A stretch of 64,000 nucleotides of DNA, from the NCBI GenBank assembly GCA_964196275.1, contig CAXMSN010000001.1, positions 12,769 through 76,768 on the forward strand, in the 5' to 3' direction. Below are positions 568 through 51,914 of the stretch, one piece after another. Each line of letters starts with the position of its first letter. The first letter of the stretch is position 1. Both the position numbers and the translations under genes were made by a program. Under the pieces are notes generated by a model, which saw only the letters and a program-made list of their open reading frames with translations, ran no database searches and was not told the DNA's origin. This stretch comes from an uncultured Kiloniellales bacterium (lineage in GTDB: Bacteria > Actinomycetota > Acidimicrobiia > Spongiisociales > UBA5794).

Positions 568-713
568 CACCCAGACAACCCTACGCGAACCAGCACCGAT
601 CTTCAGGAGTCAGAGCTCACGGCCACGCGTGAGAATGCCCGTGGTCTGTGGTCTGTGGTCTGTGGTCCGTGGTCCGTGGTCCGTGGTCCGTGGTCCGGAG
701 CGAAGGCGAGCGA

Positions 714-4449: not shown

Positions 4450-4967
4450 CCGACAACATCGAGAGTGCACATCCAGCCCCAATGGTTCCGGGAGCCATCG
4501 CAGATCTGCTCGAAGATCTCCTTAGCGAGATCCAGAGTGCGCGTGCGGTCCCACTTTCGAACAACGTCATGATCAACCAGGAGGAGATCCTCGATCGACT
4601 CCACCAGGCGATCGAGGACCTCCCAGAAGAACTGAGGGCCGCCCGGTGGATGGTCCGTGAACGCGAGGCGTATATCTCACGTACCAACGAGAAGGCACGC
4701 GATCTCCTGGTGAAGGCACGTGAAGAGTCGGAACAGCTTGTCTCGGAGAACTACGTCGTCCAGGAAGCCGTCGAAGAGGCGAACGCACTTGTACGAAACG
4801 CAGAGAGCGAGGGGCGACGGATCAGACTCGAAGCCGAGGATTTCGCCGAACGCCACCTGAGCGAAGCCGAATCCGTACTTGGCGAGCTCTACCGCTACAT
4901 CACCGAAGCCAGAGCAGAACTCCACAAGGCTCTTCCGCCAGCTGAACCACCACCGATCAGCGAGTAG
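4446..4967 (+). CDS. Hypothetical coiled-coil protein conserved downstream of coaD
   Basis: 173 aa, charged, with heptad-like E/R/A-rich sequence. It overlaps the coaD stop. No catalytic motif was recognised. Confidence 0.5.
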   Translation: MTDNIESAHPAPMVPGAIADLLEDLLSEIQSARAVPLSNNVMINQEEILDRLHQAIEDLPEELRAARWMVREREAYISRTNEKARDLLVKAREESEQLVSENYVVQEAVEEANALVRNAESEGRRIRLEAEDFAERHLSEAESVLGELYRYITEARAELHKALPPAEPPPISE

Positions 4968-12368: not shown

Positions 12369-12387
12369 ACGGCTCGAACGAAGCAGG

Positions 12388-12473
12388 TATTACGTACCAC
12401 GTAGTACGTACAACTCCGGCGTCGTACTACGTAATCCGTACGACGCCCCACAGCCGGCTATCTCCCCTGCTAC
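12388..12473 (+). repeat. Composite TACGTA-hairpin plus pyrimidine-rich TCTCCCCTGC element, copy 1
   Basis: AT-rich island ATTACGTACCACGTAGTACGTAC...CGTACTACGTAAT. A 10-bp inverted repeat (ACGTAGTACG/CGTACTACGT) forms the stem. It is followed by CCGTACGAC...TCTCCCCTGCTAC. It lies between convergent cdd and etfA. Related copies are at ~23556, ~40888 and ~50115. Confidence 0.6.
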
Positions 12474-17274: not shown

Positions 17275-17326
17275 GGGTCGGCAGCTTAGCGCTGCCTCCA
17301 GACTCGCTCGGCTCCGCCTTCGCTGA

Positions 17327-17433
17327 CAGACCGCAGACCACAGGCGGCAGTCCCGCTCGCCGCACTCGCTGACAGGTCGGAAGCGGAGTTCTTGGTTGGC
17401 TGTTGTCTGTCGCCTGTGTTCTTCTGTCCGCCG
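17327..17433 (+). repeat. Heptad-type repeat motifs upstream of ffh (AGACCGC-AGACCAC and CTGTTGTCTGT-containing block)
   Basis: AGACCGCAGACCACAGG lies at 17327-17343 and TTGGTTGGCTGTTGTCTGTCGCCTGTGTTCTTCTGTCCGCCG at 17392-17433. They resemble the arrays at 641-696 and 20161-20194. They lie in the 174-nt upp/ffh divergent intergenic region, 15-55 nt before the ffh ATG. Confidence 0.4.
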
Positions 17434-17447
17434 TACACTCCGGATCC

Positions 17448-18791
17448 ATGTTCGATGCACTCTCATCCCGGCTCAATGGCGTATTTGGCGGCCTTCGTAG
17501 CAAGGGCAGGCTCAGCGAAGACGACGTGAACGCTACGCTGCGCGAGGTGCGATTGGCGCTCCTCGAGGCCGACGTGAACCTGAACGTCACGAAGGCGTTC
17601 ATCGAGAGGGTTCGGGTTCGGGCGATAGGCTCGGAGGTAACGAAGAGCCTCACGCCCGGCCAGCAGGTCATCAAGATCGTGCACGAGGAACTCGTGGTCA
17701 CGCTCGGAGATGCAGCGGCACCTTTGGTAAGACCGGCAGCCCCGCCGCTTGTCATCCTCATGGTGGGGCTTCAGGGGTCAGGTAAGACCACCACCGCGGC
17801 GAAGCTCGCACAGCACCTCAAGAGCAAGGGAAAGCGTCCCATGCTTATCGCTGCCGACCTTCAGCGCCCTGCTGCCATCGACCAACTCGAACAGCTGGGA
17901 CGGCAGATCGGTGTGCCCGTGTACGCCGAACGGGGCGGAAAGGCACCGAAGGTCGTCAAGGCTGGGATGAAAGCTGCGAGAGAAGAGAGTGCGAACGCGA
18001 TCATCGTGGACACCGCTGGCCGTCTCCAGATCGATACCGATCTCATGAAGGAGCTCGCGGCGATCGAGAAGGTTGCCGATCCCGATGAGACGCTGCTTGT
18101 CGTGGACGCTATGACCGGGCAGGAAGCGGTCAACGTTGCGCTGGGTTTTAAGAAGCACACGGATATCTCCGGTCTCGTGCTCACGAAGATCGACGGCGAT
18201 GCTCGTGGTGGCGCTGCAATCTCCGTCCGAGAGGTGACGGGCGTCCCGGTCAAATTCGTCGGAACGGGAGAATCCATCGACGGGCTGGATGTCTTTCATC
18301 CCGACCGTATGGCATCTCGAATCCTCGGGATGGGCGACGTGCTCACTCTCATCGAGAAGGCAGAGGCCAACTACGACGAGGAAGAGGCGGAACTGGCCGC
18401 AAAGAAGATGTTGGACGCGACGTTCGACCTCGAAGACTTCCTCGAGCAGTTCCAACAGATCAAGAGGATGGGGCCTTTGCAGCAACTCGTCGGTATGCTC
18501 CCGGGTGCAGGTTCGGCTTTAGGCGACATCCAGGTGGACGAGAAACAACTCGGCCGCGTGGAGGCGATTATCCGTTCGATGACTCCTCGGGAACGTCGAA
18601 ACCCCAAGATGATCACCGGTAGTCGTAAGCGTCGTATCGCTGCCGGGTCGGGAACCCGGCCGCAGGACGTCAATGGCGTTCTCAAACAGTTCTCGCAAGC
18701 GCAAAAGATGATGAAGGCAATGGCCGGTGGCAAGAGTCCCATCCCTGGGCTCCAGATGCCGGGCATGCCACGCACGACGAAGAAGAGGTAA
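17448..18791 (+). CDS. ffh: Signal recognition particle protein Ffh
   Basis: Starts MFDALSSRLNGVFGGL. NG domain with GLQGSGKTTT, DTAGR and TKIDGD motifs. Met-rich M domain at the C-terminus. Confidence 0.9.
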   Translation: MFDALSSRLNGVFGGLRSKGRLSEDDVNATLREVRLALLEADVNLNVTKAFIERVRVRAIGSEVTKSLTPGQQVIKIVHEELVVTLGDAAAPLVRPAAPPLVILMVGLQGSGKTTTAAKLAQHLKSKGKRPMLIAADLQRPAAIDQLEQLGRQIGVPVYAERGGKAPKVVKAGMKAAREESANAIIVDTAGRLQIDTDLMKELAAIEKVADPDETLLVVDAMTGQEAVNVALGFKKHTDISGLVLTKIDGDARGGAAISVREVTGVPVKFVGTGESIDGLDVFHPDRMASRILGMGDVLTLIEKAEANYDEEEAELAAKKMLDATFDLEDFLEQFQQIKRMGPLQQLVGMLPGAGSALGDIQVDEKQLGRVEAIIRSMTPRERRNPKMITGSRKRRIAAGSGTRPQDVNGVLKQFSQAQKMMKAMAGGKSPIPGLQMPGMPRTTKKR

Positions 18792-18798
18792 ACCAGAG

Positions 18799-19272
18799 AT
18801 GGCAACCAAAATCCGCCTGACGCGGCTTGGTAAGAAGAAACAGCCGACGTACCGCGTCGTCGTGATGGACTCCCGCAAGCCCCGTGATGGAAAATACATC
18901 GAGCAACTCGGGATCTACGATCCCCGCCAGCAGCCGTCGCTCATCAAGATCGACAACGAGCGGGCGCTCCATTGGCTTCGCACCGGTGCACAGCCGACAG
19001 AGCGGGCGCAGAAGCTCCTCGAGATTTCAGGAGCCTGGACCCAGTTCAAGGTGGCTAAGGGCGACATCCATACCGTGGCGGACACTCCTGCTGTGGTTGA
19101 GGAAGTTGTAGCTGAGGCGGTCGCTGTTGAGGCCGTTGCGGTTGAAGCAGACGACGGAGCAGAGGATGTCGGAAGTCCGAAGTCCGAGGTCCGAGCAGAA
19201 GAAGAGACAGAAGTAGCAGAAGCAGATCAGCAAGAAGAAGTAACCGCTGACGAGAGTTCGGAAGAAGCATGA
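18799..19272 (+). CDS. rpsP: 30S ribosomal protein S16 with acidic C-terminal extension
   Basis: Starts MATKIRLTRLGKKKQPTYRVVVMDSR. The C-terminal ~60 aa are E/A/V-rich (AVAVEAVAVEADDGAEDV...EETEVAEADQQEE). Confidence 0.9.
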   Translation: MATKIRLTRLGKKKQPTYRVVVMDSRKPRDGKYIEQLGIYDPRQQPSLIKIDNERALHWLRTGAQPTERAQKLLEISGAWTQFKVAKGDIHTVADTPAVVEEVVAEAVAVEAVAVEADDGAEDVGSPKSEVRAEEETEVAEADQQEEVTADESSEEA

Positions 19273-19521: not shown

Positions 19522-20085
19522 GTGGCCGAAGGCCATACAGATCGCATCCCCGTCGGATACGTGCGAAGACCGCACGGCATTCGTGGGGATGTTGTCGTTC
19601 GCGGCCTCGTAGACGACGCCGAAGCCAAGTTCGCAGTAGGAGCATCGTTCCTTTCGAACGAAGACCCGCCCGCTGATCTGACGATCGCGATGGTTGCTCC
19701 CTTGAAGGGCGACTACAGGATCCACTTCGAGGAGGTCTCCGACAGAAATCGCTCGGAGGGTCTCCAAGGCGTGCAGATCACAGTTCCGTCCGGCGAACGC
19801 AGGCAACTCGAAGACGACGGGTGGTGGCCCGAGGACCTGATCGGGTGCCAGGTACTCGACGCCGAAGGCAGCGAGATCGCCGTGGTTCGCGAGGTCATCA
19901 TCGGGAGCGCCCAAGATCGCCTGGCGGTAGAGGCGAAGGATGGCTCCACGGCCGAGATCCCATTCGTCGATGCACTCGTCCTCAAGGTCGACATCGCCAA
20001 CGATGAGATCATCGTCGATCTCCCGGACGGCCTGTTCGAGTCGACGGACCACGGACCACGGACCACGGACGGCAGAAGTTCTTAG
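19522..20085 (+). CDS. rimM: Ribosome maturation factor RimM
   Basis: GTG start immediately after the KH-gene stop. Contains the RimM GIRGDVVV motif and a PRC barrel. Its C-terminal residues DHGPRTTDG are encoded by a GGACCAC heptad repeat. Confidence 0.8.
   Translation: MAEGHTDRIPVGYVRRPHGIRGDVVVRGLVDDAEAKFAVGASFLSNEDPPADLTIAMVAPLKGDYRIHFEEVSDRNRSEGLQGVQITVPSGERRQLEDDGWWPEDLIGCQVLDAEGSEIAVVREVIIGSAQDRLAVEAKDGSTAEIPFVDALVLKVDIANDEIIVDLPDGLFESTDHGPRTTDGRSS
20046..20070 (+). repeat. (GGACCAC)x3.5 tandem heptamer inside the rimM 3' coding end
   Basis: A perfect GGACCACGGACCACGGACCACGGAC run. It is the reverse complement of the GTGGTCC unit in the 641-696 array. Confidence 0.8.
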
Positions 20086-20160: not shown

Positions 20161-20194
20161 TGGTCTGTTGTCTGTGGTCTGTTGTCTGTGGTCC
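20161..20194 (+). repeat. (TGGTCTGTTGTCTG)x2 + TGGTCC tandem repeat upstream of icmF
   Basis: Two perfect 14-mers followed by TGGTCC. It ends 25 nt before the icmF ATG. GTGGTC-family motif. Confidence 0.8.
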
Positions 20195-20218
20195 TCCGCC
20201 GTGACCTAATCTCGCCTT

Positions 20219-23200
20219 ATGGCCGACCAACCGACTGTCCGCATCGTTACCGCTACGTCGTTGTTCGACGGGCACGATGCGGCGATCAACATCATGCGCC
20301 GGATCCTTCAGTCGTCAGGTGCTGAGGTCATCCATCTCGGCCACGACCGCTCCGCCGCGACGATCGCCGAAGCTGCGATCGAAGAGGATGCTCACGCCGT
20401 TGCGGTGACCTCGTATCAGGGTGGGCACATCGAGTTCTATCGATATCTCCGCTCTCTGCTCGATGATTCCGGTGGCTCCGACATCCAGATCTTCGGAGGC
20501 GGAGGTGGAACCATTCTCCCTGCAGAAGGCAAGGAACTCCTTGATGAGGGCACCGTCCGAATCTACTCCCCGGATGATGGCCGAAGGATGGGTCTCGAAG
20601 GCATGGTCGATCACCTCATCGCTGCCGCCAGATCCGAGAAGCCGGGTTTTGAAGGGGTATTTGACGGCGTGATGAACGGCGACAGCGCCGCGATCGCCCG
20701 AGCGATCACGCTAGCCGAGAGTGCCGCCGCTTCGAATGCCGAACTCCTCGATGCGATCCGTGATGCCGGAGCGGATACGAACGTCCCTGTGGTCGGATTC
20801 ACAGGCACCGGAGGTGCGGGCAAGTCCTCGATCCTCGACGAACTCGTGCTTCGATTTCGTGCCGATCTCCCTGATCACAGGATCGCCGTCATCTCGGTCG
20901 ATCCCTCCCGGCGTCGAACGGGAGGTGCGCTGCTTGGCGACCGCATCCGGATGAACTCAGTCGTCGGAGATCACTGCTTCATGCGTTCCCTGGCCACGCG
21001 GCAAGCGAACCTGTCGATGTCGCCCCACGTCGCAGACTCGGTGTCCATCGTGAAGGCAGCCGGGTTCGATCTGGTGCTCCTCGAGACATCAGGCATCGGG
21101 CAATCCGATACCCAGATCGTGGATGCTTCTGATGTGTCCGTGTACGTGATGACGCCCGAATACGGCGCTGCGACACAACTCGAGAAGATCGACATGCTCG
21201 ATTTCGCAGATCTGGTCGTCATCAACAAGTCCGACAGGCCTGGCGCCGACGACGCCCTTCGCGATGTTCGCAAGCAGGTCAAGCGGAATCGCAAGATGTT
21301 CGAAGCTTCAGACGAAGAGATCCCCGTTCTCGCAACGGTGGCATCGCGCTTCAACGACGCTGGTACACAAGCCATGTACGAAGCAGTGATGAGTCTCGTT
21401 ACAGACGCGTTCCCTGACGCTCTCGGGCCCATTCGGCACCGATCGGGGACACCGAACACCACGCCACTCATCCCCAGATCACGGGTGCGATATCTGTCAG
21501 AGATCTCCGATGCGGTTCGTGCGTACAACGCAGAGACAGATCGCTTTGTCGATGTTGCCCAAGACCTTCAAGCCATTGACAGGTTGGTCGCGATATCACC
21601 TGAGGCCCATACAGCAGCGGAAGGATCCGTAGAAGAGCTTCCCGAAGATGTAGGTTCGCAACTCGCAGCGTGGGACGCCACCGCCGACGAATACGCCGCA
21701 GATTCGGTGTCGTATGTCGTGAGGGGCAAGACGCTCGACGTTGACAACGCCGTCGAGAGCCTCTCGGGTACGACGTTCCCGAAGGTGATCCACCCAAGGC
21801 TGAGCGGCTGGGGAGACCGTCTGAGGTGGCTGCGCCAGGAGAATCTGCCCGGACGGTTCCCGTTCACTGCGGGAGTGTTTCCGTTCAAACGGGAGCGGGA
21901 AGACCCAACGAGGATGTTCGCCGGGGAGGGCGGCCCCGAGCAGACCAACCGACGATTCCACTACCTCGCGTCCGGCATGCCAGCCATCCGGCTCTCGACC
22001 GCGTTCGACTCTGTGACTTTGTACGGGAACGACCCCGATCCACGGCCAGACATCTACGGCAAGGTCGGGAACTCGGGTGTCTCGGTGTCGACACTCGATG
22101 ACGCCAAGAAGCTGTACTCAGGCTTCGACCTTCGCGATCCCACGACATCTGTATCGATGACGATCAACGGGCCTGCTCCGATGATGCTTGCCTTCTTCCT
22201 GAACACGGCTGTCGATCAGGCGTGCGAGAGGTACATCATCGAAAGTGGGCTTGGCGAACAGGCAGGTGTCACCGTCTCCGAGATCTTCGCCGAGCGCGGC
22301 GTGGAACAGCCCAGGTACCACGGCGCACTTCCCCCGGGACACGACGGGTCTGGTCTCATGTTGCTCGGCATCTCCGGCGAGGACGTTCTCGATGCTGAGG
22401 TGTACGAGAAGATCAAGATCGAGACGCTCGCCGCCGTGCGAGGCACCATACAGGCCGACATCCTCAAAGAGGATCAGGCTCAGAACACATGCATCTTCTC
22501 CACGGAATTCGCCCTTTCGATGCAGGGCGACATGCAGCAGTATTTCATCGACAATGACATCAGGAACTTCTACTCCGTCTCGATATCTGGCTACCACATG
22601 GCGGAAGCCGGAGCCAACCCGATCACGCAGTTGGCCTTCACGCTTGCGAATGGCTTCACCTTCGTCGAGTACTACAGAGCAAGGGGCATGGCCGTTGACG
22701 ACTTCGCACCGAACCTGAGCTTCTTCTTCTCGAATGGCATCGACCCCGAGTACGCCGTCATCGGGAGGGTTGCGAGGCGAATCTGGGCCAAAGCGATGGA
22801 CAACCTGTACGGAGCCTCGGAGCGGAGCCAGAAGCTCAAGTACCACATCCAAACATCAGGTCGGTCGCTCCATGCACAGGAGATCGGTTTCAATGACATT
22901 CGAACGACGTTGCAAGCCCTGTATGCGATCTACGACAACACGAACTCGCTCCACACGAACGCGTACGACGAAGCGATCACGACTCCGACAGAGGACTCCG
23001 TGCGTCGAGCACTTGCTATCCAGCTGATCATCAACAAGGAGCTCGGCCTTGCCAAGAACGAGAACCCCTTGCAAGGCTCGTTCATCATCGAAGAACTGAC
23101 AGATCTCGTTGAGGAAGCGGTTCTTGTCGAATTCGACCGGCTCACCGACCGAGGCGGAGTCCTCGGTGCGATGGAGTCGATGTACCAGCGATCGAAGATC

Positions 23201-23539: not shown

Positions 23540-23555
23540 TCGCTCGGCTACGCCT

Positions 23556-23708
23556 CGCTCCGGACCATGGACTACGAGGCTTCCCCGTATTACGTATGAC
23601 GTATGACGTACTCCGGAGCGGCCTCGACGTTGTTCTGCTGATTGATCGATCAGAGCCGAGCGGCTTGGTAGAGAGCTACGGGCATTTCCGTGGTCCGTAG
23701 TCCTCTGC
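23556..23708 (+). repeat. Composite TACGTA-hairpin plus GTCCGTAGTCCTCTGC element, copy 2
   Basis: Inverted repeat CGCTCCGG (23556-63) / CCGGAGCG (23613-20) enclosing GGACCATGGACTAC and GTATTACGTATGACGTATGACGTAC. It is followed at 23688-23708 by CCGTGGTCCGTAGTCCTCTGC. It lies between convergent icmF and the Rieske-TPP gene. Confidence 0.55.
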
Positions 23709-25639
23709 TAGTACTGAAGCTTGCTTGAGCGGATGTCCAGGACGCCTGGGCCCTTGGTGGCGAAGAGTTCGGTCATTCCTTCGTCAAGATCTGCGGGCGT
23801 TTCGACGCGTCGGCCGTACATGTCGAGGGAGGTCGCCATGTTGGCCCACGATGGGTTTTTGAGCTTCGTTGCCCATACGTGCGTGTTTGCGAGTTGCTGT
23901 TCTGCGGTGATCTTTCCAAGCTCGTCGTTGGAGAGGACGAGCATCTTCACGTTGAGGTCGTGGAGAGCAACGGTCGCGAGTTCCAGTGCGTACTGGCCGA
24001 ATCCGCCGTCGCCTGCGATGCCCACGATGGTCTTCTCCGGATACGCGGCCGCAGCACCGATCGCGGCCGGCAATGCGTATCCGATCGAACCAAGCCATCC
24101 CGACATCGCGACCCGTTGCCCGTTCGCCTGGAAGTACCGGCCAAAGGAGTAGGTCGAATTGCCAACGTCGAGTGCGACGATCGCGTCGTGGGGAATGTGT
24201 CGTTCAAGAGCCGTGAAGATCGCTGCACTCGTCAGCCGTCCGTCACGATCGAGTCCCAATCTGGATCGCTTCCTCTCGTTCCACCAGGCCTTTCGCGTTT
24301 CCAACCACTCCCGGAGTTCCGGACGATCCTTCGCTGCCGTTACGGTTGTCAGCGCTGTTGCGGTCTCCCCAGCGTCAGCCAGAGCGAACACCTCCACGTT
24401 CGCACCGTTGCGACGAGACGCAAGCGGGTCGGTATCGATCCGAACGACGCGGCGTTTCGGTGTGATCCCCGTGTGGGGAGCCATGCCTCCGCCGAACACG
24501 ACGATCAGATCCGACCGCGTCTGCATCGCGGCGGAAACGGGTGTGCCCGACCTGCCGAGAACGCCTGTCGACAGCGCCGACGTCTCGTCGACGCAACCCT
24601 TCGCCGGGAAGGTCGTCGCAACGGCGGCGTCAACGTGTTCCGCCAGGTCGAGGATGGCGCTGGCGTGCGGTCCGCCGCCCCTGCCGATCACGAACAGCGG
24701 CGTTTCAGCCTCGTCGATCATCCTGGCGATCTCGACGACATCCTGGGGCGTGGGGGAGAGGTGGTTTTCGAGCGGGCGGATGGGGACGTGTACATCGTCA
24801 GTGGCTGGCAATGTCTGGACGTCGTCGGGAATCACAAGATGGGAGATGTCATGCTGCGTTGTTGCATACGTAAGCATGTCGGCTGCCACATCGGGGCCGT
24901 CGCTCGCAGACATTCGCTTTGACCATCCGGCGACAGGCCCCATAGCGCTTACAAGCGGAACTTCCTGGAACGCCCTGGTTCCGAGCAGTTTCGTCGGAAT
25001 CTGGCCCGTGATAGCGAGCAGCGGCGTGTTCGAGAGTTTCGCGTCCCACATTCCGGTGTACAGGTTCGTCGCACCCGGACCCGCGATAGCGAAACAGACA
25101 GCGGGCTTCCCTGTCAGCTTTCCGAACGACGATGCAGCGAACGCTGCCGCACCTTCGTGTCGCACGCCGATGAATCGAAGGTCGCCACGTTTCTCTGCCG
25201 CTCGGAAGGCATCGGCGAGGCCGAGATTCGAGTGTCCGACTATGCCGAAGACCGCTGTGATCCCACCCTCGACGAGTTCGTCCACGACCTGTGTCATGAG
25301 CGTTGTGTCATGGATGACTGGTTCCTCGACTCCAATGTGGATTCCGTCGTCGCGCTCCTCGACGGGAAAGCATTCAACACGGTCATCGAACGGGCCGGGT
25401 GTCTCGCCCGTCTTCGGGTCGTATTCCCAGCCATGCCATGGACAGACGAGCCACTGACCCTCAATGAGACCTTCCCCGAGCGGCCCCCCCTGGTGTGGGC
25501 AGCGGTTGGAGACGGCTCCCCAGCCGTCCTCGGTCCGCGACAGCGCGAGCGTGAAGTGGCCTGCTTGAACCACCGTGACGGTTCCCACGGCGATCTCATC
25601 TGCGTCGGCAACCCGGAACCAAGTAAGCGAATCGGTCAT
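23708..25639 (-). CDS. Rieske [2Fe-2S] domain fused to a thiamine-pyrophosphate/FAD-type (acetolactate synthase/pyruvate oxidase-like) enzyme
   Basis: N-terminal Rieske ligand motifs CPHQGGPL and CPWHGWEY. These are followed by TPP_enzyme N/M/C architecture: catalytic Glu in RHEGAAAFAA, and GDGGFGQY...LSNDELGKI matching the TPP/Mg motif. ATG 25639 preferred over the in-frame GTG 25657, which lies inside a repeat. Confidence 0.8.
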   Translation of the reverse strand: MTDSLTWFRVADADEIAVGTVTVVQAGHFTLALSRTEDGWGAVSNRCPHQGGPLGEGLIEGQWLVCPWHGWEYDPKTGETPGPFDDRVECFPVEERDDGIHIGVEEPVIHDTTLMTQVVDELVEGGITAVFGIVGHSNLGLADAFRAAEKRGDLRFIGVRHEGAAAFAASSFGKLTGKPAVCFAIAGPGATNLYTGMWDAKLSNTPLLAITGQIPTKLLGTRAFQEVPLVSAMGPVAGWSKRMSASDGPDVAADMLTYATTQHDISHLVIPDDVQTLPATDDVHVPIRPLENHLSPTPQDVVEIARMIDEAETPLFVIGRGGGPHASAILDLAEHVDAAVATTFPAKGCVDETSALSTGVLGRSGTPVSAAMQTRSDLIVVFGGGMAPHTGITPKRRVVRIDTDPLASRRNGANVEVFALADAGETATALTTVTAAKDRPELREWLETRKAWWNERKRSRLGLDRDGRLTSAAIFTALERHIPHDAIVALDVGNSTYSFGRYFQANGQRVAMSGWLGSIGYALPAAIGAAAAYPEKTIVGIAGDGGFGQYALELATVALHDLNVKMLVLSNDELGKITAEQQLANTHVWATKLKNPSWANMATSLDMYGRRVETPADLDEGMTELFATKGPGVLDIRSSKLQY

Positions 25640-25650
25640 GGATGCAGAGT

Positions 25651-25692
25651 AGACCACGGACCACGGACTACAGACTTCGGACTACGGAACCT
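25651..25692 (+). repeat. Degenerate heptad array AGACCAC-GGACCAC-GGACTAC-AGACTTC-GGACTAC-GGAACCT
   Basis: Six 7-nt units lying 12 nt upstream of the Rieske-TPP ATG. It reads GTGGTCC on the gene's sense strand. It lies between the lipoprotein gene and the Rieske-TPP gene. Confidence 0.7.
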
Positions 25693-40868: not shown

Positions 40869-40887
40869 TCGCTCGCTTTGCTCGCCC

Positions 40888-40943
40888 CAGTAGTACGTAT
40901 TAGGTACTACGTAGTCCCGTATCCGTTATCTCCTCTGCCCGCC
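40888..40943 (+). repeat. Composite TACGTA-hairpin plus TCTCCTCTGCC element, copy 3
   Basis: CAGTAGTACGTATTAGGTACTACGTAGTCCCGTATCCGTTATCTCCTCTGCCCGCC. It begins 20 nt after the sigma-factor stop, in the rpsB leader region. Confidence 0.55.
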
Positions 40944-41062
40944 ATATCCTCTCAGCATCAAACACGATCATCGCAATCCCCGTGTGGTGCGGTCTCCGCT
41001 TGGAGAACGTTCGGGGGCTCGAAGGGTGGTCGGAAGCACAACCCGAACAAGGAGAAAACACT

Positions 41063-49288: not shown

Positions 49289-49303
49289 CCGAGCAATGGG
49301 TAG

Positions 49304-50110
49304 GTGTCGGCTATGGGCCGAGGAGTTGGACAAACGGATCATGAGGGCAGACCCGTCGACTTCGGACGGACAGCCTCTGACTACGAGCAGTATCGCCCAG
49401 GCTTCCCAGACCAATTCTTCGATCGCCTTGAGAGCCGCGGCTGGATTGTCGCTGGGCAGCACGGCTTGGATCTTGGAACCGGTACAGGGACGGTCGCAAT
49501 AGGCCTGTCGGCTCGCGGGCTTGACATGACCGGTCTTGACATAGCGCCTGAGCTCCTCGACGCGGCACGACAGACCGCAGTGGACCGTGGCCTCTCGCCC
49601 CGATTTTTCGTCGGGAAGGCTGAGGCGACGGGTCAGACCGATGCGTCGTACGCTCTTGTGACTGCCGGCCAAAGCTGGTGGTGGTTCGACTCGGACGCCA
49701 CCATCCGCGAAGTGCACCGCATCCTCAGATCAGGCGGGCGTCTCGCGATCTGTGCCTTCAGTTATCTGCCGTTAGGTGGCACTGCCGCCGGTCGTACCGA
49801 GGATCTCATCCTTGAGCACAACCCTGGATGGACCAAAGCCGGCTGGCGAGGTGTACATCCTGAGCAGGTGCGAGCACTCGACGAGGGTGGCTTCACCGGG
49901 GTGGAAAGTTTCAGCTACACGGTCGATGTGCCCTTCACCCACGAGGCCTGGCGTGGCCGCATGCGAACATGCAACGGAGTCGGAGCGTCACTCGACGAGG
50001 GGGAAGTGGATCGATTCGACGGGGCTCTCGCCACGATGCTCGCCAACGAGTTCCCTGGCGACCTCACCGTCCCTCACCGCATCTTCGCCGCCAGCGGCAT
50101 CAAGCCTTGA
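49304..50110 (+). CDS. Class I SAM-dependent methyltransferase
   Basis: Motif I (LDLGTGTGTVAIGL) plus post-I acidic and motif II features. Substrate unknown. Confidence 0.65.
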   Translation: MSAMGRGVGQTDHEGRPVDFGRTASDYEQYRPGFPDQFFDRLESRGWIVAGQHGLDLGTGTGTVAIGLSARGLDMTGLDIAPELLDAARQTAVDRGLSPRFFVGKAEATGQTDASYALVTAGQSWWWFDSDATIREVHRILRSGGRLAICAFSYLPLGGTAAGRTEDLILEHNPGWTKAGWRGVHPEQVRALDEGGFTGVESFSYTVDVPFTHEAWRGRMRTCNGVGASLDEGEVDRFDGALATMLANEFPGDLTVPHRIFAASGIKP

Positions 50111-50114
50111 AGCC

Positions 50115-50170
50115 GCAGTACGTACCACGTAACACGTACTGCGTGATCCGGTAGTCCGTGGTCCTCTGCC
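50115..50170 (+). repeat. Composite TACGTA-hairpin plus GTAGTCCGTGGTCCTCTGCC element, copy 4
   Basis: Perfect 9-bp stem GCAGTACGT / ACGTACTGC around the loop ACCACGTAAC (50115-50142). It is followed by GTGATCCGGTAGTCCGTGGTCCTCTGCC. It lies in the MTase-proS intergenic region; CCACGGACC recurs at ~50192. Confidence 0.6.
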
Positions 50171-50210
50171 GAGCGCTATCCTCGCTCGAAGCCACGGACC
50201 CAGGAGACGC

Positions 50211-51914
50211 ATGCGCTGGTCGCAAGCTTTCATACCCACTCTGCGCGACGACCCTGCTGATGCAGAGGCGGTGAGTCACCGGTTGCTCGTACGGGCCGGG
50301 TACATACGGCAACTGATGGCCGGCGTGTACTCGATGCTTCCGCTCGGCCAGAGGGTCCGCACGAAAGTCATGAACATCATCCGCGAGGAGATCGATGCGA
50401 TCGGTGGTCAGGAGTTCCTCCTCCCGCAGATGCATCCCCGTGAGATCTGGGACCGCACAGGTCGCTCGGAGACGATGGCAGACATCATGATGTCCTTTCA
50501 GGACAACAAGGGTGCAGACATCATCCTCGGTCCCACGCATGAGGAGATCTTTGCGACCGTTTCGACCGAGTTGACCTCCTACAAGCAACTTCCGCAGCTG
50601 TGGTATCACATCCAGACCAAGTTCAGAGACGAGGCTCGGCCGAAGTCCGGCCTCCTACGTGTCCGAGAGTTCACGATGAAGGACTCGTATTCGTTCGACA
50701 TCGACGAGGCGGGTCTCGACCTCCAGTTCGATCGGCACTACGACGCCTACGTACGGATCTTCGAACGCCTTGGAATGAGCGTTGTCTCGGTCCGTGCTTC
50801 GTCTGGAGCCATGGGTGGCAAGGAATCTGTGGAGTTCATGGTCCGCAGCGACGTCGGTGAGGATGAGGTCGCACACTGCGCTGAGTGCGGCTACGCAGCC
50901 AACGTGGAGACCGCATCATCGGTGGTAGCACCGGTCGAAGATCCAGACGGTGAATTCGAACTCGAGCGGTTCGACACTCCCGCCGTCCGCACCATCGCCG
51001 ATCTCGAGGTCTTCGAAGGTGGTGCCTCGGCTGATCGACAAGTGAAGACGCTGGTATATGTGCTCGACGGCGACCTCGCGTTGGTACTCCTCAGAGGTGA
51101 CCACGTGCTCCAGGAGCAGAAGCTCAAGGACGAGGTGCGTGCGATAGTGGCGAGGCCTGCTCAGGCGGACGAGATCGTGAAACTTCTTGGTGCGGATGCC
51201 GGAAGCCTCGGAGCGGTCGGTGTCACGGACGTGCCGATATACGCAGATGCGGCACTCAAGGGCAGAACCTCGATGACGACGGGGGCGAACACCAACGACG
51301 TCCATGTTCGTGGCGTCGATGTGGAGCGGGACATCGGCGTGACTCAATGGGTCGACGTTCGTAGGGTGTTCGATGGTGAGCCATGCGTCGAGTGTGGCGC
51401 ACCGGTCAGCGTGTTTCCGGCCATCGAAGCTGGTCACATCTTCAAACTGGGGACTTTCTATGCCGAACCGCTCGGCGTGAAGGTGCTCGACAAGGATGGG
51501 AAGATGGTCCCCGTGGTGATGGGCTCGTATGGAATCGGAGTCGAACGTAACATGGCGGCCTCAGTCGAGGCGAACCACGACGACAAAGGGATTGTCTGGC
51601 CGATCGAGATAGCACCGTTCCACGTAGTGATCACGACAGTCCGACCCGACGACGAGGAAACCGAGCGTGTCAGCACCGAGATCTACGACGCGCTCGTTGC
51701 CGACGGTGTGGAGGTTCTCCTCGATGATCGTCACGAGCGCCCTGGGGTGAAGTTCAACGATGCCGAGTTGATAGGTGTTCCCGTTCGGATCACGGTCGGA
51801 CCGAGGGGCATCCAATCCGGGATCGCTGAAATCACTGAGCGTTCGACCGGAGTAAGCAGCGAGGTTGCTCTCGCTGATGTTGTCGCCGCCGTCAAGGACC
51901 TGCTCGCCGCGTAG
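50211..51914 (+). CDS. proS: Proline--tRNA ligase
   Basis: 567 aa, class II aaRS with an editing insertion. N-terminus MRWSQAFIPTLRDDPADAEAVSHRLLVRAGYIRQ. Confidence 0.9.
   Translation: MRWSQAFIPTLRDDPADAEAVSHRLLVRAGYIRQLMAGVYSMLPLGQRVRTKVMNIIREEIDAIGGQEFLLPQMHPREIWDRTGRSETMADIMMSFQDNKGADIILGPTHEEIFATVSTELTSYKQLPQLWYHIQTKFRDEARPKSGLLRVREFTMKDSYSFDIDEAGLDLQFDRHYDAYVRIFERLGMSVVSVRASSGAMGGKESVEFMVRSDVGEDEVAHCAECGYAANVETASSVVAPVEDPDGEFELERFDTPAVRTIADLEVFEGGASADRQVKTLVYVLDGDLALVLLRGDHVLQEQKLKDEVRAIVARPAQADEIVKLLGADAGSLGAVGVTDVPIYADAALKGRTSMTTGANTNDVHVRGVDVERDIGVTQWVDVRRVFDGEPCVECGAPVSVFPAIEAGHIFKLGTFYAEPLGVKVLDKDGKMVPVVMGSYGIGVERNMAASVEANHDDKGIVWPIEIAPFHVVITTVRPDDEETERVSTEIYDALVADGVEVLLDDRHERPGVKFNDAELIGVPVRITVGPRGIQSGIAEITERSTGVSSEVALADVVAAVKDLLAA

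Follow-up and report, generated by a model that had tools for sequence, protein, structure and literature searches.

Heptanucleotide repeat arrays with a TACGTA unit variant beside conserved promoter and 3'-end sequences in an uncultured Acidimicrobiia genome

Among the long simple-sequence repeats (SSRs) of bacteria, a class with units of 5-11 nt, heptanucleotides rank first in abundance, with slippage as their proposed origin, according to Mrazek et al. (2007) as cited in two later papers (PMC4679880, PMC4692102). Of the GGGAATC arrays of Xanthomonas about 90% are intergenic, with the preceding gene ending a mean of 28 nt away; inverted pairs are frequent, and arrays at a given locus are of different length and sequence from one species to another (PMC4692102). 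TAACTGA repeats were described in marine Beggiatoaceae, cyanobacteria and Bacteroidetes (MacGregor 2015, PMC4679880), and cold-shock proteins, S1 and CsrA were proposed as their binders (PMC4679880). For the Nostoc heptamers near promoters, deletion alters reporter output, and a binding partner was postulated (bioRxiv 10.1101/2022.06.06.494920). Here we describe heptad arrays in a 64,000-nt stretch of contig CAXMSN010000001.1 (assembly GCA_964196275.1), referred to as the window, from an uncultured member of Acidimicrobiia; the same species is also found in GCA_964196555.1. The main subject is a set of four intergenic sites, S1 (cdd-etfA spacer), S2 (icmF-TPP spacer), S3 (sigma-rpsB spacer) and S4 (methyltransferase-proS spacer), which a sequence-only reading had described as four copies of a composite element, a TACGTA hairpin followed by a pyrimidine motif. 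These sites are probably slippage-driven heptanucleotide SSRs, with a self-complementary one-base variant of the unit, located beside conserved promoter or 3'-end sequence.

Genes were assigned with Pfam, and the sites were analysed with Rfam, Tandem Repeats Finder, RNAalifold, BLAST, a self-similarity scan by lag (strict threshold, 17 of 21 matches; looser threshold, 14 of 21) and fold z-scores based on shuffled sequences. Orthologous spacers at graded distances were gathered by exact look-up of the KH protein, by a metagenome scan with ribosomal protein S2 and by look-ups of cdd homologues, which carry Acidimicrobiia labels. The loci fetched, designated by L-numbers, are 219 in total. Exact-protein look-ups of the methyltransferase and of ribosomal protein S2 matched no record.

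Four sites composed of in-register heptads

Inspection of the sequence confirmed the four TACGTA-rich sites where the sequence-only reading had placed them, in a window of 61% GC instead of the 65% claimed. TACGTA occurs 13 times in the window against 1.4 expected, with 7 of the 13 inside the four sites, and ACGTANNACGTA with up to one mismatch gives 21 matches against 0.9 expected, all except two inside the sites (19/21). The genes beside the sites are, by Pfam, cdd, ETF-alpha (etfA, minus strand), icmF, a Rieske/TPP enzyme (minus strand), a sigma factor, rpsB, the methyltransferase and proS. As had been described, the arrays begin shortly 3' of the stop codons of cdd, icmF, the sigma-factor gene and the methyltransferase gene, at distances of 7-50 nt.

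What had been taken for palindromes are tandem heptads sharing one register. Each site consists of three to four in-register nnACGTA units, those of S1 and S2 reading in register as listed below, those of S3 as GTACGTA TTAGGTA CTACGTA GTCC(C)GTA, and those of S4 as GTACGTA CCACGTA ACACGTA CTGCGTG ATCCG(G)TA GTCCGTG GTCCTCT GCC; a gapless alignment of the four sites spans 3.5 heptads. The stems themselves exist. That of S1, ACGTAGTACG (12399-12408) against CGTACTACGT (12423-12432), is perfect, as is that of S4, where the inverted repeat measures 10 bp (50114-50123/50134-50143) and not the 9 bp given before, and S1 contains a further perfect 10-bp stem (12418-12427/12438-12447). These stems are a consequence of the unit itself: TACGTA equals its reverse complement, and repeating it gives a near-palindrome. 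Since TACGTAN arrays read almost alike on both strands, the common plus-strand orientation reported for the four sites rests solely on the GTCC/pyrimidine part, for which it holds.

A pyrimidine block had been reported after each of the four arrays. S2, S3 and S4 carry exact TCCTCTGC, of which the window contains five copies on both strands, three of them following a same-strand TACGTA array at no more than 75 nt and a fourth abutting another heptad array (19168). As a rough estimate, the chance that at least three of five copies lie near TACGTA arrays is about 3e-7. The S1 block, TCCCCTGC, is one mismatch away from TCCTCTGC, and 79 one-mismatch matches were found in the window against 75 expected, indicating that the block at this site is at chance level. 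The features of the four sites, in window coordinates, are the following.

12369..12469, plus strand: S1, whole cdd-etfA spacer, an insertion of about 100 nt, lineage-specific, between two convergent stop codons; whole-spacer fold z = -2.6 to -2.9 (plus strand)
12383..12410, plus strand: S1 array A, GCAGGTA TTACGTA CCACGTA GTACGTA, with a small hairpin (12387-12407) in the minimum-energy fold
12418..12447, plus strand: S1 array B, CGTCGTA CTACGTA ATCCGTA, inside the perfect 10-bp stem GGCGTCGTAC/GTACGACGCC
12459..12473, plus strand: S1 'pyrimidine motif' TATCTCCCCTGCTAC, overlapping the etfA stop codon (12470-12472, minus strand); kept only in L214
23540..23561, plus strand: S2 head motif TCGCTCGGCTACGCCTCGCTCC, directly 3' of the icmF stop codon; pairs with 23654-23662
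23583..23617, plus strand: S2 heptads CCCCGTA TTACGTA TGACGTA TGACGTA CTCCGGA (period 7 by Tandem Repeats Finder), within the hairpin 23575-23626; z = -1.7 (plus), -3.7 (minus)
23686..23707, plus strand: S2 right-hand heptads and block, TTCCGTG GTCCGTA GTCCTCT G, forming a hairpin with 23666-23682 and abutting the stop codon (23708-23710) of the minus-strand TPP/Rieske gene
40869..40888, plus strand: S3 head-like motif TCGCTCGCTTTGCTCGCCCC, directly 3' of the sigma-factor stop codon
40890..40917, plus strand: S3 heptads GTAGTAC GTATTAG GTACTAC GTAGTCC; stem of just 7 bp, spacer z = -0.1 to -0.2
40918..40944, plus strand: S3 degenerate heptads and pyrimidine block, CGTATCC GTTATCT CCTCTGCC CGCCA; comparable blocks in relatives
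40945..40950, plus strand: predicted rpsB -10 box TATCCT; predicted start at 40957, conserved leader 40957-41062
50114..50145, plus strand: S4 heptads GTACGTA CCACGTA ACACGTA CTGCGTG; perfect 10-bp stem CGCAGTACGT/ACGTACTGCG, z = -1.6
50146..50170, plus strand: continuation of the S4 array, ATCCGGTA GTCCGTG GTCCTCT GCC (pyrimidine block), in the register of the TACGTA units save for one extra base
50177..50182, plus strand: predicted proS -10 box TATCCT; predicted start near 50189, ATG at 50211

The period of 7 nt is not confined to the four sites. In the strict lag scan six regions of the window were detected at lag 7, and none at lags 4-6, 8, 10 or 11; the looser scan at lag 7 gave 11 arrays in 64 kb, including all four sites, and Tandem Repeats Finder agrees on the period. 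Nine of these 11 arrays are intergenic, and the other two are in C-terminal tails past the last domain. The main unit of the family is GTCCGTG/GTCTGTK (ACGGACC/ACAGACC on the opposite strand), and the earlier remark that the pyrimidine block is related to the GTCCGTGGTCC heptad family is borne out. GTACGTA differs by one base from GTCCGTA, and GTCCGTA itself occurs in S2. At S3 and S4, ACGTA-type units pass continuously into CCGTG-type units and end in GTCCTCTGCC, which suggests that the 'composite' at these two sites would be a single array with a gradient of unit variants.

The idea of a repeat family was right, as was the location at transcription-unit boundaries just 3' of plus-strand genes. 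A discrete composite element in four copies was not found: the copies share just a heptad core of about 25 nt, with unshared flanks, and when the window and all 219 fetched loci were searched by BLAST with whole spacers, only the heptads matched. The observation is thus confirmed, and its interpretation is partly supported.

Variable arrays between conserved flanks

Genes and leaders flanking the sites show 84-95% DNA identity in close relatives, whereas in the same places the TACGTA arrays are absent, of other length, or replaced by other heptads. The clearest series comes from S3. L132, L133 and L134 match the window at 84-95% identity, with 0-1 gaps, over the 3' end of the sigma-factor gene, the rpsB leader and rpsB, and the leader is 84-92% identical even where the adjoining spacer is unalignable. 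The window has 76 nt between the stop codon and the -10 box, as against 172 in L132, 24 in L133, 252 in L134, 150 in L138 and 24 in L135. These spacers contain TACGTA units in the window, ACAGACC...GTCTGTN in L132, ACGGACC...CTTCGGG...GTCCGTR in L134 and CACGGTC/GTCAACC/AGCTCAC in L138; no heptads were found in the sigma-rpsB spacers of L133 and L135. A head-type motif follows the sigma-factor stop codon also in L132 and L134.

At S4, L132 and the window align collinearly (87-93% identity) apart from an extra 871 nt in the window (49294-50164), comprising the methyltransferase gene (49304-50110) and the TACGTA array. At this position L132 has 62 nt of GTCCGAG and (GTTGTCT) x 5 heptads, and the alignment resumes at 50165. 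As a separate observation, the presence or absence of the methyltransferase gene falls exactly at the L132 heptad array, and heptad spacers may be sites of gene gain and loss. At S2, two parts are retained in the more distant L213, the motif TCGTTCGGCTCCGCCTCGCT following the icmF stop codon and the tail TTCCGTGGTCCGTGGTCTTCCG beside the TPP stop codon; the middle with the TACGTA array is absent from this orthologous spacer. At S1, three relatives with cdd 88-92% identical (L215, L216, L219) have just 3 nt between the convergent stop codons, and the pyrimidine motif, kept in L214, is absent from other relatives along with the rest of the insertion. S1 occurs only in the relatives at 97-100% identity. 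L214 (cdd 97% identical) has a spacer of 127 nt with 3 + 7 units against 4 + 3-4 in the window, and the strain variant L121 has the same length as the window with two single-nucleotide polymorphisms (SNPs), both inside the array. Comparison of empty and filled S1 sites gave no clear target-site duplication. Based on the orthologous spacers of S1-S4, the TACGTA arrays are therefore young, lineage-specific and variable. The same variability is seen upstream of icmF, where 0, 2, 3 or 5 heptads precede an invariant CTAATCT-N6-ATG in nine relatives, and upstream of the TPP gene, where L213 has just GTGTTCCGTGGTC, TAGTCT, 6 nt and ATG.

The pyrimidine block behaves differently. In the window and relatives, GTCCTCYGCC or GTCTTCCGC is located 1-6 nt 5' of TAnnnT at rpsB, proS, icmF and ffh. 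At S3 and S4 the block precedes a conserved -10 box, at S2 it is the 3' hairpin arm beside the stop codon and is kept in L213, and at S1 it is part of the insertion. Blocks before the rpsB -10 box in relatives read GGCTTCCGAACCGCCA (L132) and GCATCTCCG (L133). As judged from these alignments, the block is the conserved promoter-proximal end of the right-hand G/T-rich array, and the 'pyrimidine motif' differs in kind from the array itself.

The TAnnnT hexamers are conserved in position. At rpsB, in about 25 relatives, the spacing between the hexamer and the leader (ATCAmACACG...CGCAATCCCCGTGTGGTGCG) is constant, and TACACT, TATACT, TACAAT and TAGAAT occur as variants. At proS, GGTATCCTCGCTCGGAGCCACGGACCCAGGAGACGCATG is kept in L132, and TATCCT is found also in L150. 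TACTCT/TAGTCT followed by 6 nt and ATG at the TPP gene, and TACACT followed by 8 nt and ATG at ffh, are both kept in L213. TANNNT promoters and leaderless mRNAs are established in Actinobacteria. Located 6-8 nt before a predicted start or leaderless-type ATG, the hexamers are positioned as would be expected of Actinobacterial housekeeping promoters and are predicted to be actinobacterial-type -10 boxes; by spacing, icmF and the TPP gene would be leaderless genes, with ffh (8 nt) close to this. Scans for terminators and E. coli-type promoters at the four sites gave nothing relevant, the stems being A/T-rich without a T run, and the absence of an E. coli-type -35/-10 pair fits promoters without a -35 consensus. 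The arrays were also considered as -35 elements (TTGTCT), and this was rejected, the spacing to the -10 box varying from 19 to 26 nt among relatives.

Two observations concern the leaders of these genes. There is no Shine-Dalgarno sequence at icmF (20207-20221), the TPP gene (25651-25637, minus strand) or ffh (17434-17450), and all three arrangements are conserved in relatives. The rpsB 5' leader (40957-41062; ATCAAACACGATCATCGCAATCCCCGTGTGGTGCGG...GGCTCGAAGGGTGGTCGGAAG...AAGGAG), conserved in about 25 relatives within Acidimicrobiia, matches no Rfam family and is a candidate autoregulatory leader responsive to ribosomal protein S2.

In the window and relatives the spacers follow a common layout in the 5' to 3' direction: stop codon, often TCGCTCGGCTnCGCCTCGCT immediately after it, an A/C-rich array (ACGGACC/ACAGACC), a G/T-rich array (GGTCCGT/GGTCTGT), the block GTCCTCYGCC, 1-6 nt, and TAnnnT of the next gene. 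The G/T-rich arrays face the downstream start at six of six window promoters, those of UPRTase and the TPP gene on the minus strand and those of ffh, icmF, rpsB and proS on the plus strand. Where both inverted arms exist they pair: the rimM-icmF spacer folds at -84.8 kcal/mol (z = -4.7 to -5.2), and the other spacers with inverted arrays give z-scores of -2.9 to -4.5 (S2), -2.8 to -3.9 (L132, L134, L138) and -2.2 to -2.9 (L214). Direct-only arrays lack excess structure, with z from 0 to +2.5 (L128, the 639 array, and L132 upstream of proS). A strand asymmetry of folding due to G-U pairs (-84.8 against -59.5 kcal/mol at rimM-icmF) was considered as a sign of selection at the RNA level and rejected as a general rule, since it is reversed in L132 and L138. 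The other arrays of the window and the sequences adjoining them are the following.

639..697, plus strand: largest array, (CTGTGGT/CCGTGGT) x 8.4; read on the minus strand, 3' of the stop codon (714-716) of a cold-shock-domain gene; z about 0
697-713, minus strand: head motif TCGCTCGCCTTCGCTCC at the 639 array, beside the stop codon of the cold-shock-domain gene
17325..17423 (17325-17354 and 17388-17423), no strand assigned: inverted array pair GACAGAC CGCAGAC CACAGGC ... GGCTGTT GTCTGTC GCCTGTG in the divergent UPRTase-ffh spacer
17434-17439, plus strand: predicted ffh -10 box TACACT, predicted start about 17448; box and inverted-pair architecture kept in L213
19168..19194, plus strand: GTCCGAA/GTCCGAG heptads within the acidic C-terminal tail of ribosomal protein S16
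20044..20070, plus strand: (ACGGACC) x 3.9 at the 3' end of the rimM reading frame, past the last Pfam domain; pairs with 20161-20195
20161..20206 (heptads 20161-20193), plus strand: (TGGTCTG/TTGTCTG) x 4.7, then GGTCCTCCGCCGTGACC, directly 5' of the icmF -10 box
20207-20212, plus strand: predicted icmF -10 box TAATCT; leaderless-type ATG at 20219
25646..25688 (heptads 25649-25688), minus strand: TTCCGTA GTCCGAA GTCTGTA GTCCGTG GTCCGTG GTC, upstream of the TPP/Rieske gene
25651-25646, minus strand: predicted TPP/Rieske -10 box TACTCT, followed by 6 nt and ATG (25639)
Places of the head motif: window 697-713 (minus strand), 23540-23561, 40869-40888 and 17303-17325; L132 2365-2450; L134 3635-3655; L213 6166-6186

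In the region 639-1103 of the window, the longest array is directly 3' of the cold-shock-domain gene (Pfam CSD, E = 6e-8). The C/T-rich head motif, TCGCTCGGCTnCGCCTCGCT(CC), starts at the first base past the stop codons of this gene, icmF and the sigma-factor gene, and is kept at the orthologous stop codons in relatives; a search with it gave one clear match when ungapped and nine matches with up to four errors against 5-8 in shuffled sequences, that is, chance level. A GCTCGCTTTGCTCGC motif resembling the S3 head occurs with a TACGTA array in the tuf-rpsJ spacer of an Acidimicrobiia metagenome-assembled genome (MAG), L098. In the tuf-rpsJ spacers of L098 (130-190) and of a further Acidimicrobiia MAG (L046, 60-130), TACGTA heptads are followed by GCGAGCA(A/G)AAGCGAGC, which in reverse complement reads as the GCTCGCTTTGCTCGC motif found ahead of the S3 array. 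Within reading frames, ribosomal protein S16 (window 18727-19272; L122-L131) has an acidic C-terminal tail that is partly made of 7- and 14-nt repeats (GAAGTCC, GACGGAAGTCGGAC) and ranges from 112 to 203 aa among contigs with an identical KH protein. In the region 20044-20085 of the window, the rimM array extends the C-terminus (...STDHGPRTTDGRSS), and relatives have a single GACGGA and a shorter tail. At 4583-4623 (minus strand) there is a weak, sub-threshold Rfam match to Actino-pnp RNA (26 bits against a gathering threshold of 47.7; E = 0.31).

Beyond this lineage, a wider scan of one genome per species with the query TACGTANNACGTANNACGTAC gave TACGTA arrays at at least 119 loci, against about 17 expected by our own uniform-composition estimate. 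Hosts among the matches listed include Acidimicrobiia, other Actinomycetota, Chloroflexota, Bacteroidota, Deinococcota, Acidobacteriota and Saccharibacteria, and one Terrimonas MAG (Bacteroidota) accounts for more than 40 loci among these matches. In 850 kb of the matches listed, 132 TACGTA-type arrays and about 139 other lag-7 arrays were counted against 8-31 at lags 5, 6 and 8-11; TACGTA arrays therefore inhabit generally heptad-rich genomes. For the high-GC loci among the matches listed, classified with a crude gene call, 60 of 70 classifiable arrays are intergenic; 46 of these 60 are in co-directional spacers, the commonest place, and five in divergent spacers, the rarest, against a share of 19% for divergent spacers among all spacers. 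About half of the arrays in co-directional spacers of these high-GC matches are within 20 nt of a stop codon by the same crude call. Among the matches listed from other genomes, a comparison of the distances of TACGTA arrays to the upstream stop codon and to the downstream start gave 24 against 21, with a crude gene caller that over-extends starts.

In the Terrimonas MAG JBIQMS01 (L022, L026, L045, L087, L089, L100, L115), plant-telomere-like (CCCTAAA/CCTTAAA)n runs straight into (ACGTAWW)n at dozens of loci. In Calidithermus (L084, L103), (TTGCGTC/TTGCGTT)n is followed by (GACGTAC/GACGTAA)n, with arms that pair only by way of G-U, so that the hairpin is specific to one RNA strand. L096 has a perfect hairpin, (TACGTAC)3-GGGGCGAAGCCCC-(GTACGTA)3.

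Origin of the arrays

As in the long-SSR class, iteration is specific to period 7 and above chance, copy number and unit vary between conserved flanks, and the arrays are mostly intergenic. The heptad repeats of the window are of this known bacterial kind, and not a new RNA or mobile element. A one-base change of the family unit, ACGGACC to ACGTACC (GTCCGTA to GTACGTA on the other strand), would yield a self-complementary unit, and runs of the changed unit would then read as palindromes; we infer this one-step origin of the TACGTA unit from comparison of the unit variants. Slipped-strand mispairing in a 7-nt register is the likely generator, by which arrays would grow, shrink and swap unit type, and copying between inverted arms probably contributes. 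The apparent 'composite' would then be a fast-changing array beside the upstream block of a core promoter (S3, S4) or beside a 3' hairpin arm (S2). At the boundaries of transcription units the arrays themselves would act, at most, as spacers or hairpins that can be dispensed with; they would not be sequence-specific signals.

Several findings weigh against this explanation. S1 is an insertion of about 100 nt with non-repetitive ends where relatives have 3 nt, and local slippage alone cannot create such an insertion. S1, S2 and S4 share GTAYTACGTA...ACGTAC...TCCGG beyond the heptads, which could mean copying between loci. Arrays recur in the same spacers of different lineages, inverted arms stay complementary despite the change of unit (L132, L134, L138, rimM-icmF, L096), and the G/T-rich arrays are fixed in orientation toward the start at all six window promoters; recurrence, arm complementarity and orientation together suggest selection or a directed mechanism and not pure drift. 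The sole strain variant, L121, differs by its two SNPs and not in length. Finally, the 7-nt period is not accounted for by slippage.

The main rival explanation, possible though considerably less likely than slippage, is that the arrays are kept as boundary stem-loops in RNA or cruciforms in DNA, which would end or insulate transcription of the upstream gene or protect its 3' end just ahead of the next promoter, slippage just lengthening the stems. All four sites are 7-50 nt past a stop codon at a transcription-unit boundary, and about half of the co-directional-spacer arrays in other high-GC genomes, among the matches listed, are within 20 nt of a stop. The spacers with inverted arrays and S1 (z = -2.6 to -2.9) fold better than shuffled sequences, three lineages whose units differ all retain the inverted arrangement in the sigma-rpsB spacer, and the L096 hairpin is perfect. 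However, a T-run terminator is absent at all four sites, which had been suggested to be terminators, and their fold z-scores range from -0.1 to -2.9, S3 folding no better than shuffled sequences (z = -0.1) and S4 weakly (z = -1.6). Direct-only arrays have z-scores of zero or above (L128, the 639 array, and L132 upstream of proS with +2.5), the favoured strand is inconsistent among relatives, and the arrays are dispensed with in L133, L135, L123, L125 and the 3-nt cdd-etfA spacers. In MAG111 (L006) the arrays come after canonical terminators and do not replace them.

A doubtful alternative would make the arrays a tandem platform for a single-strand-binding protein with a 7-nt footprint, most likely a cold-shock-domain protein, with one molecule per heptad of the G/T-rich strand, modulating hairpins, anti-termination or initiation. 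This would account for both the 7-nt period and the tolerance of unit variation. GTCTGTG/GTCTGTT match six of seven positions of GTCTTTG/T, the sequence preferred by B. subtilis CspB, including the preferred C at position 3 (PMC1904285); CspB binds dT7 (PMC1636342), and cold-shock proteins were earlier proposed as binders of the TAACTGA heptads (PMC4679880). The orientation of the G/T-rich arrays toward the downstream start (6/6) and the position of the longest array next to the cold-shock-domain gene would also agree. The TACGTA units, however, have A where CspB prefers C and match at three of seven positions, units at orthologous sites are unrelated (AGCTCAC, GTCAACC, CTTCGGG), and the likeness to GTCTTTK is to a Bacillus protein. 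Moreover, arrays 5' of a leaderless -10 box are outside the transcript of that gene, and the 3' region of the cold-shock gene itself bears the complementary (ACGGACC) strand. In an extension of equally low probability, the arrays would be built and oriented by a process that measures 7 nt, and would not be passive products of slippage; as one example, the heptads could serve as tandem landing pads where cold-shock-domain proteins, one on each heptad of the GUCYGUK strand, open or close the inverted-array hairpins at gene boundaries. The self-complementary TACGTA arrays would be a protein-independent, locked-hairpin variant. If true, this would amount to a temperature- or stress-responsive system of anti-termination and insulation common to many phyla.

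It is improbable that the sites belong to an element resembling REP (repetitive extragenic palindromic) sequences or MITEs (miniature inverted-repeat transposable elements), with TACGTA hairpins spread by a transposase or by recombination and carrying their flanks along. Two stop codons that three relatives have 3 nt apart are separated at S1 by a clean insertion of about 100 nt, S4 is at the edge of the 871-nt methyltransferase segment lacking in L132, GTAYTACGTA...ACGTAC...TCCGG is common to S1, S2 and S4, the head motif recurs directly after several unrelated stop codons, and in our own reading of the sequence the heptads start with GTAG or GTGG, like REP heads. On the other side, full-spacer BLAST matches are confined to the heptads; there is no fixed length, no terminal inverted repeat, no shared end and no convincing target-site duplication; and the numbers of units differ between the window and L214 within the same insertion. 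No transposase was seen beside any site among the selected window reading frames that were scanned. A reading of S4 as an integron attC-like site, following an inserted gene, was rejected for want of R'/R'' core sites and integron context.

Less probable still are operator arrays for a regulator of double-strand DNA that reads contiguous heptads. The omega repressor of pSM19035 is a regulator of this kind. ToxR and H-NS are associated with the TTTTGAT heptads of the ctxAB promoter, where copy number varies (bioRxiv 10.1101/2021.05.14.444153), and the arrays described here likewise vary in copy number and include contiguous direct and inverted heptads directly 5' of core promoters. The occurrence of several unrelated units in one genome, and at one orthologous promoter among close relatives, argues against such operators, as do S1 and S2, which are between convergent gene ends where there is no promoter, and a candidate regulator was not identified. 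The sequence-only reading had also suggested genes for small non-coding RNAs or structured RNAs of the 3'-UTR. This is highly unlikely: Rfam matched none of the four sites, whether at the gathering threshold or at E<=0.5, no common fold emerged for the four copies with RNAalifold (-2.5 kcal/mol, 0 compensatory or covarying pairs, with the low power of only four copies), the sites are not conserved in close relatives, and the scans found no promoter and terminator pair of their own.

Comparison with known systems

The sites lack the properties of an intrinsic terminator, a structured RNA family, a MITE, REP/REPIN palindromes or a single-motif operator of the omega or ctxAB type. What looked like a new RNA or mobile element is reassigned to a known and poorly understood class, which averts misannotation as small RNAs, terminators or MITEs in Acidimicrobiia MAGs. 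The comparative series is unusually clean, since one and the same spacer is found without an array or with different heptads beside an invariant core promoter, and it makes testable why long SSRs favour 7 nt and whether promoters or transcript ends are affected. Experimental handles are provided by the layout rule, the orientation toward starts and the likeness of GTCTGTK to the heptanucleotide of cold-shock proteins.

The nearest parallel is given by the heptamers of Xanthomonas (GGGAATC) and Nostoc (GGGGAYT) described by Rehm et al. (2015, PMC4692102), which are likewise heterogeneous 7-nt tandem units near the upstream 3' end, form convergent inverted pairs capable of stem-loops, differ in length and sequence at the same loci, and are located beside housekeeping genes; their function has not been established, and slippage was proposed. 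Unlike those, the units described here are not G-rich, so that no quadruplex is expected; the TACGTAN variant is self-complementary, so that a single array is its own inverted repeat; and the arrays abut a conserved TAnnnT, in several cases at leaderless-type genes. In contrast to Xanthomonas, the unit type turns over completely between close relatives, in an uncultured Acidimicrobiia host.

The short palindromes of the REP/BIME/REPIN type resemble the present sites in being intergenic, past stop codons, sometimes in inverted doublets and with GT[AG]G-like starts. In the present arrays, by contrast, neither the length nor the sequence of the unit is fixed, near-identical dispersed copies are lacking and the substructure is one of 7-nt tandem units; no RAYT was identified among the selected window reading frames. 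The TTTTGAT heptads of V. cholerae ctxAB (bioRxiv 10.1101/2021.05.14.444153) and the SSR of H. influenzae hmw1/2 (PMC12721329, PMC8262952) are also located just 5' of or within promoters or 5' regions in strain-variable number, but in those pathogens the repeats are confined to individual contingency loci that are bound by defined proteins or subject to phase variation, while the arrays here are genome-wide, beside housekeeping genes and also between convergent gene ends.

With the TAACTGA repeats (PMC4679880) the arrays share the arrangement of 2-6 heptads directly 5' of starts without a Shine-Dalgarno sequence, including those of ribosomal protein genes, and the occurrence of one unit across distant phyla. 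In the TAACTGA case one unit dominates and related heptamers are rare, whereas many unit types coexist here, and the conserved -10 box at leaderless spacing suggests that a transcriptional reading fits better than one of ribosome binding. The short tandemly repeated repetitive (STRR) sequences of heterocystous cyanobacteria and the Nostoc heptamers (bioRxiv 10.1101/2022.06.06.494920) are contiguous heptamers near promoters and starts throughout the genome, as here, in another phylum and with other units.

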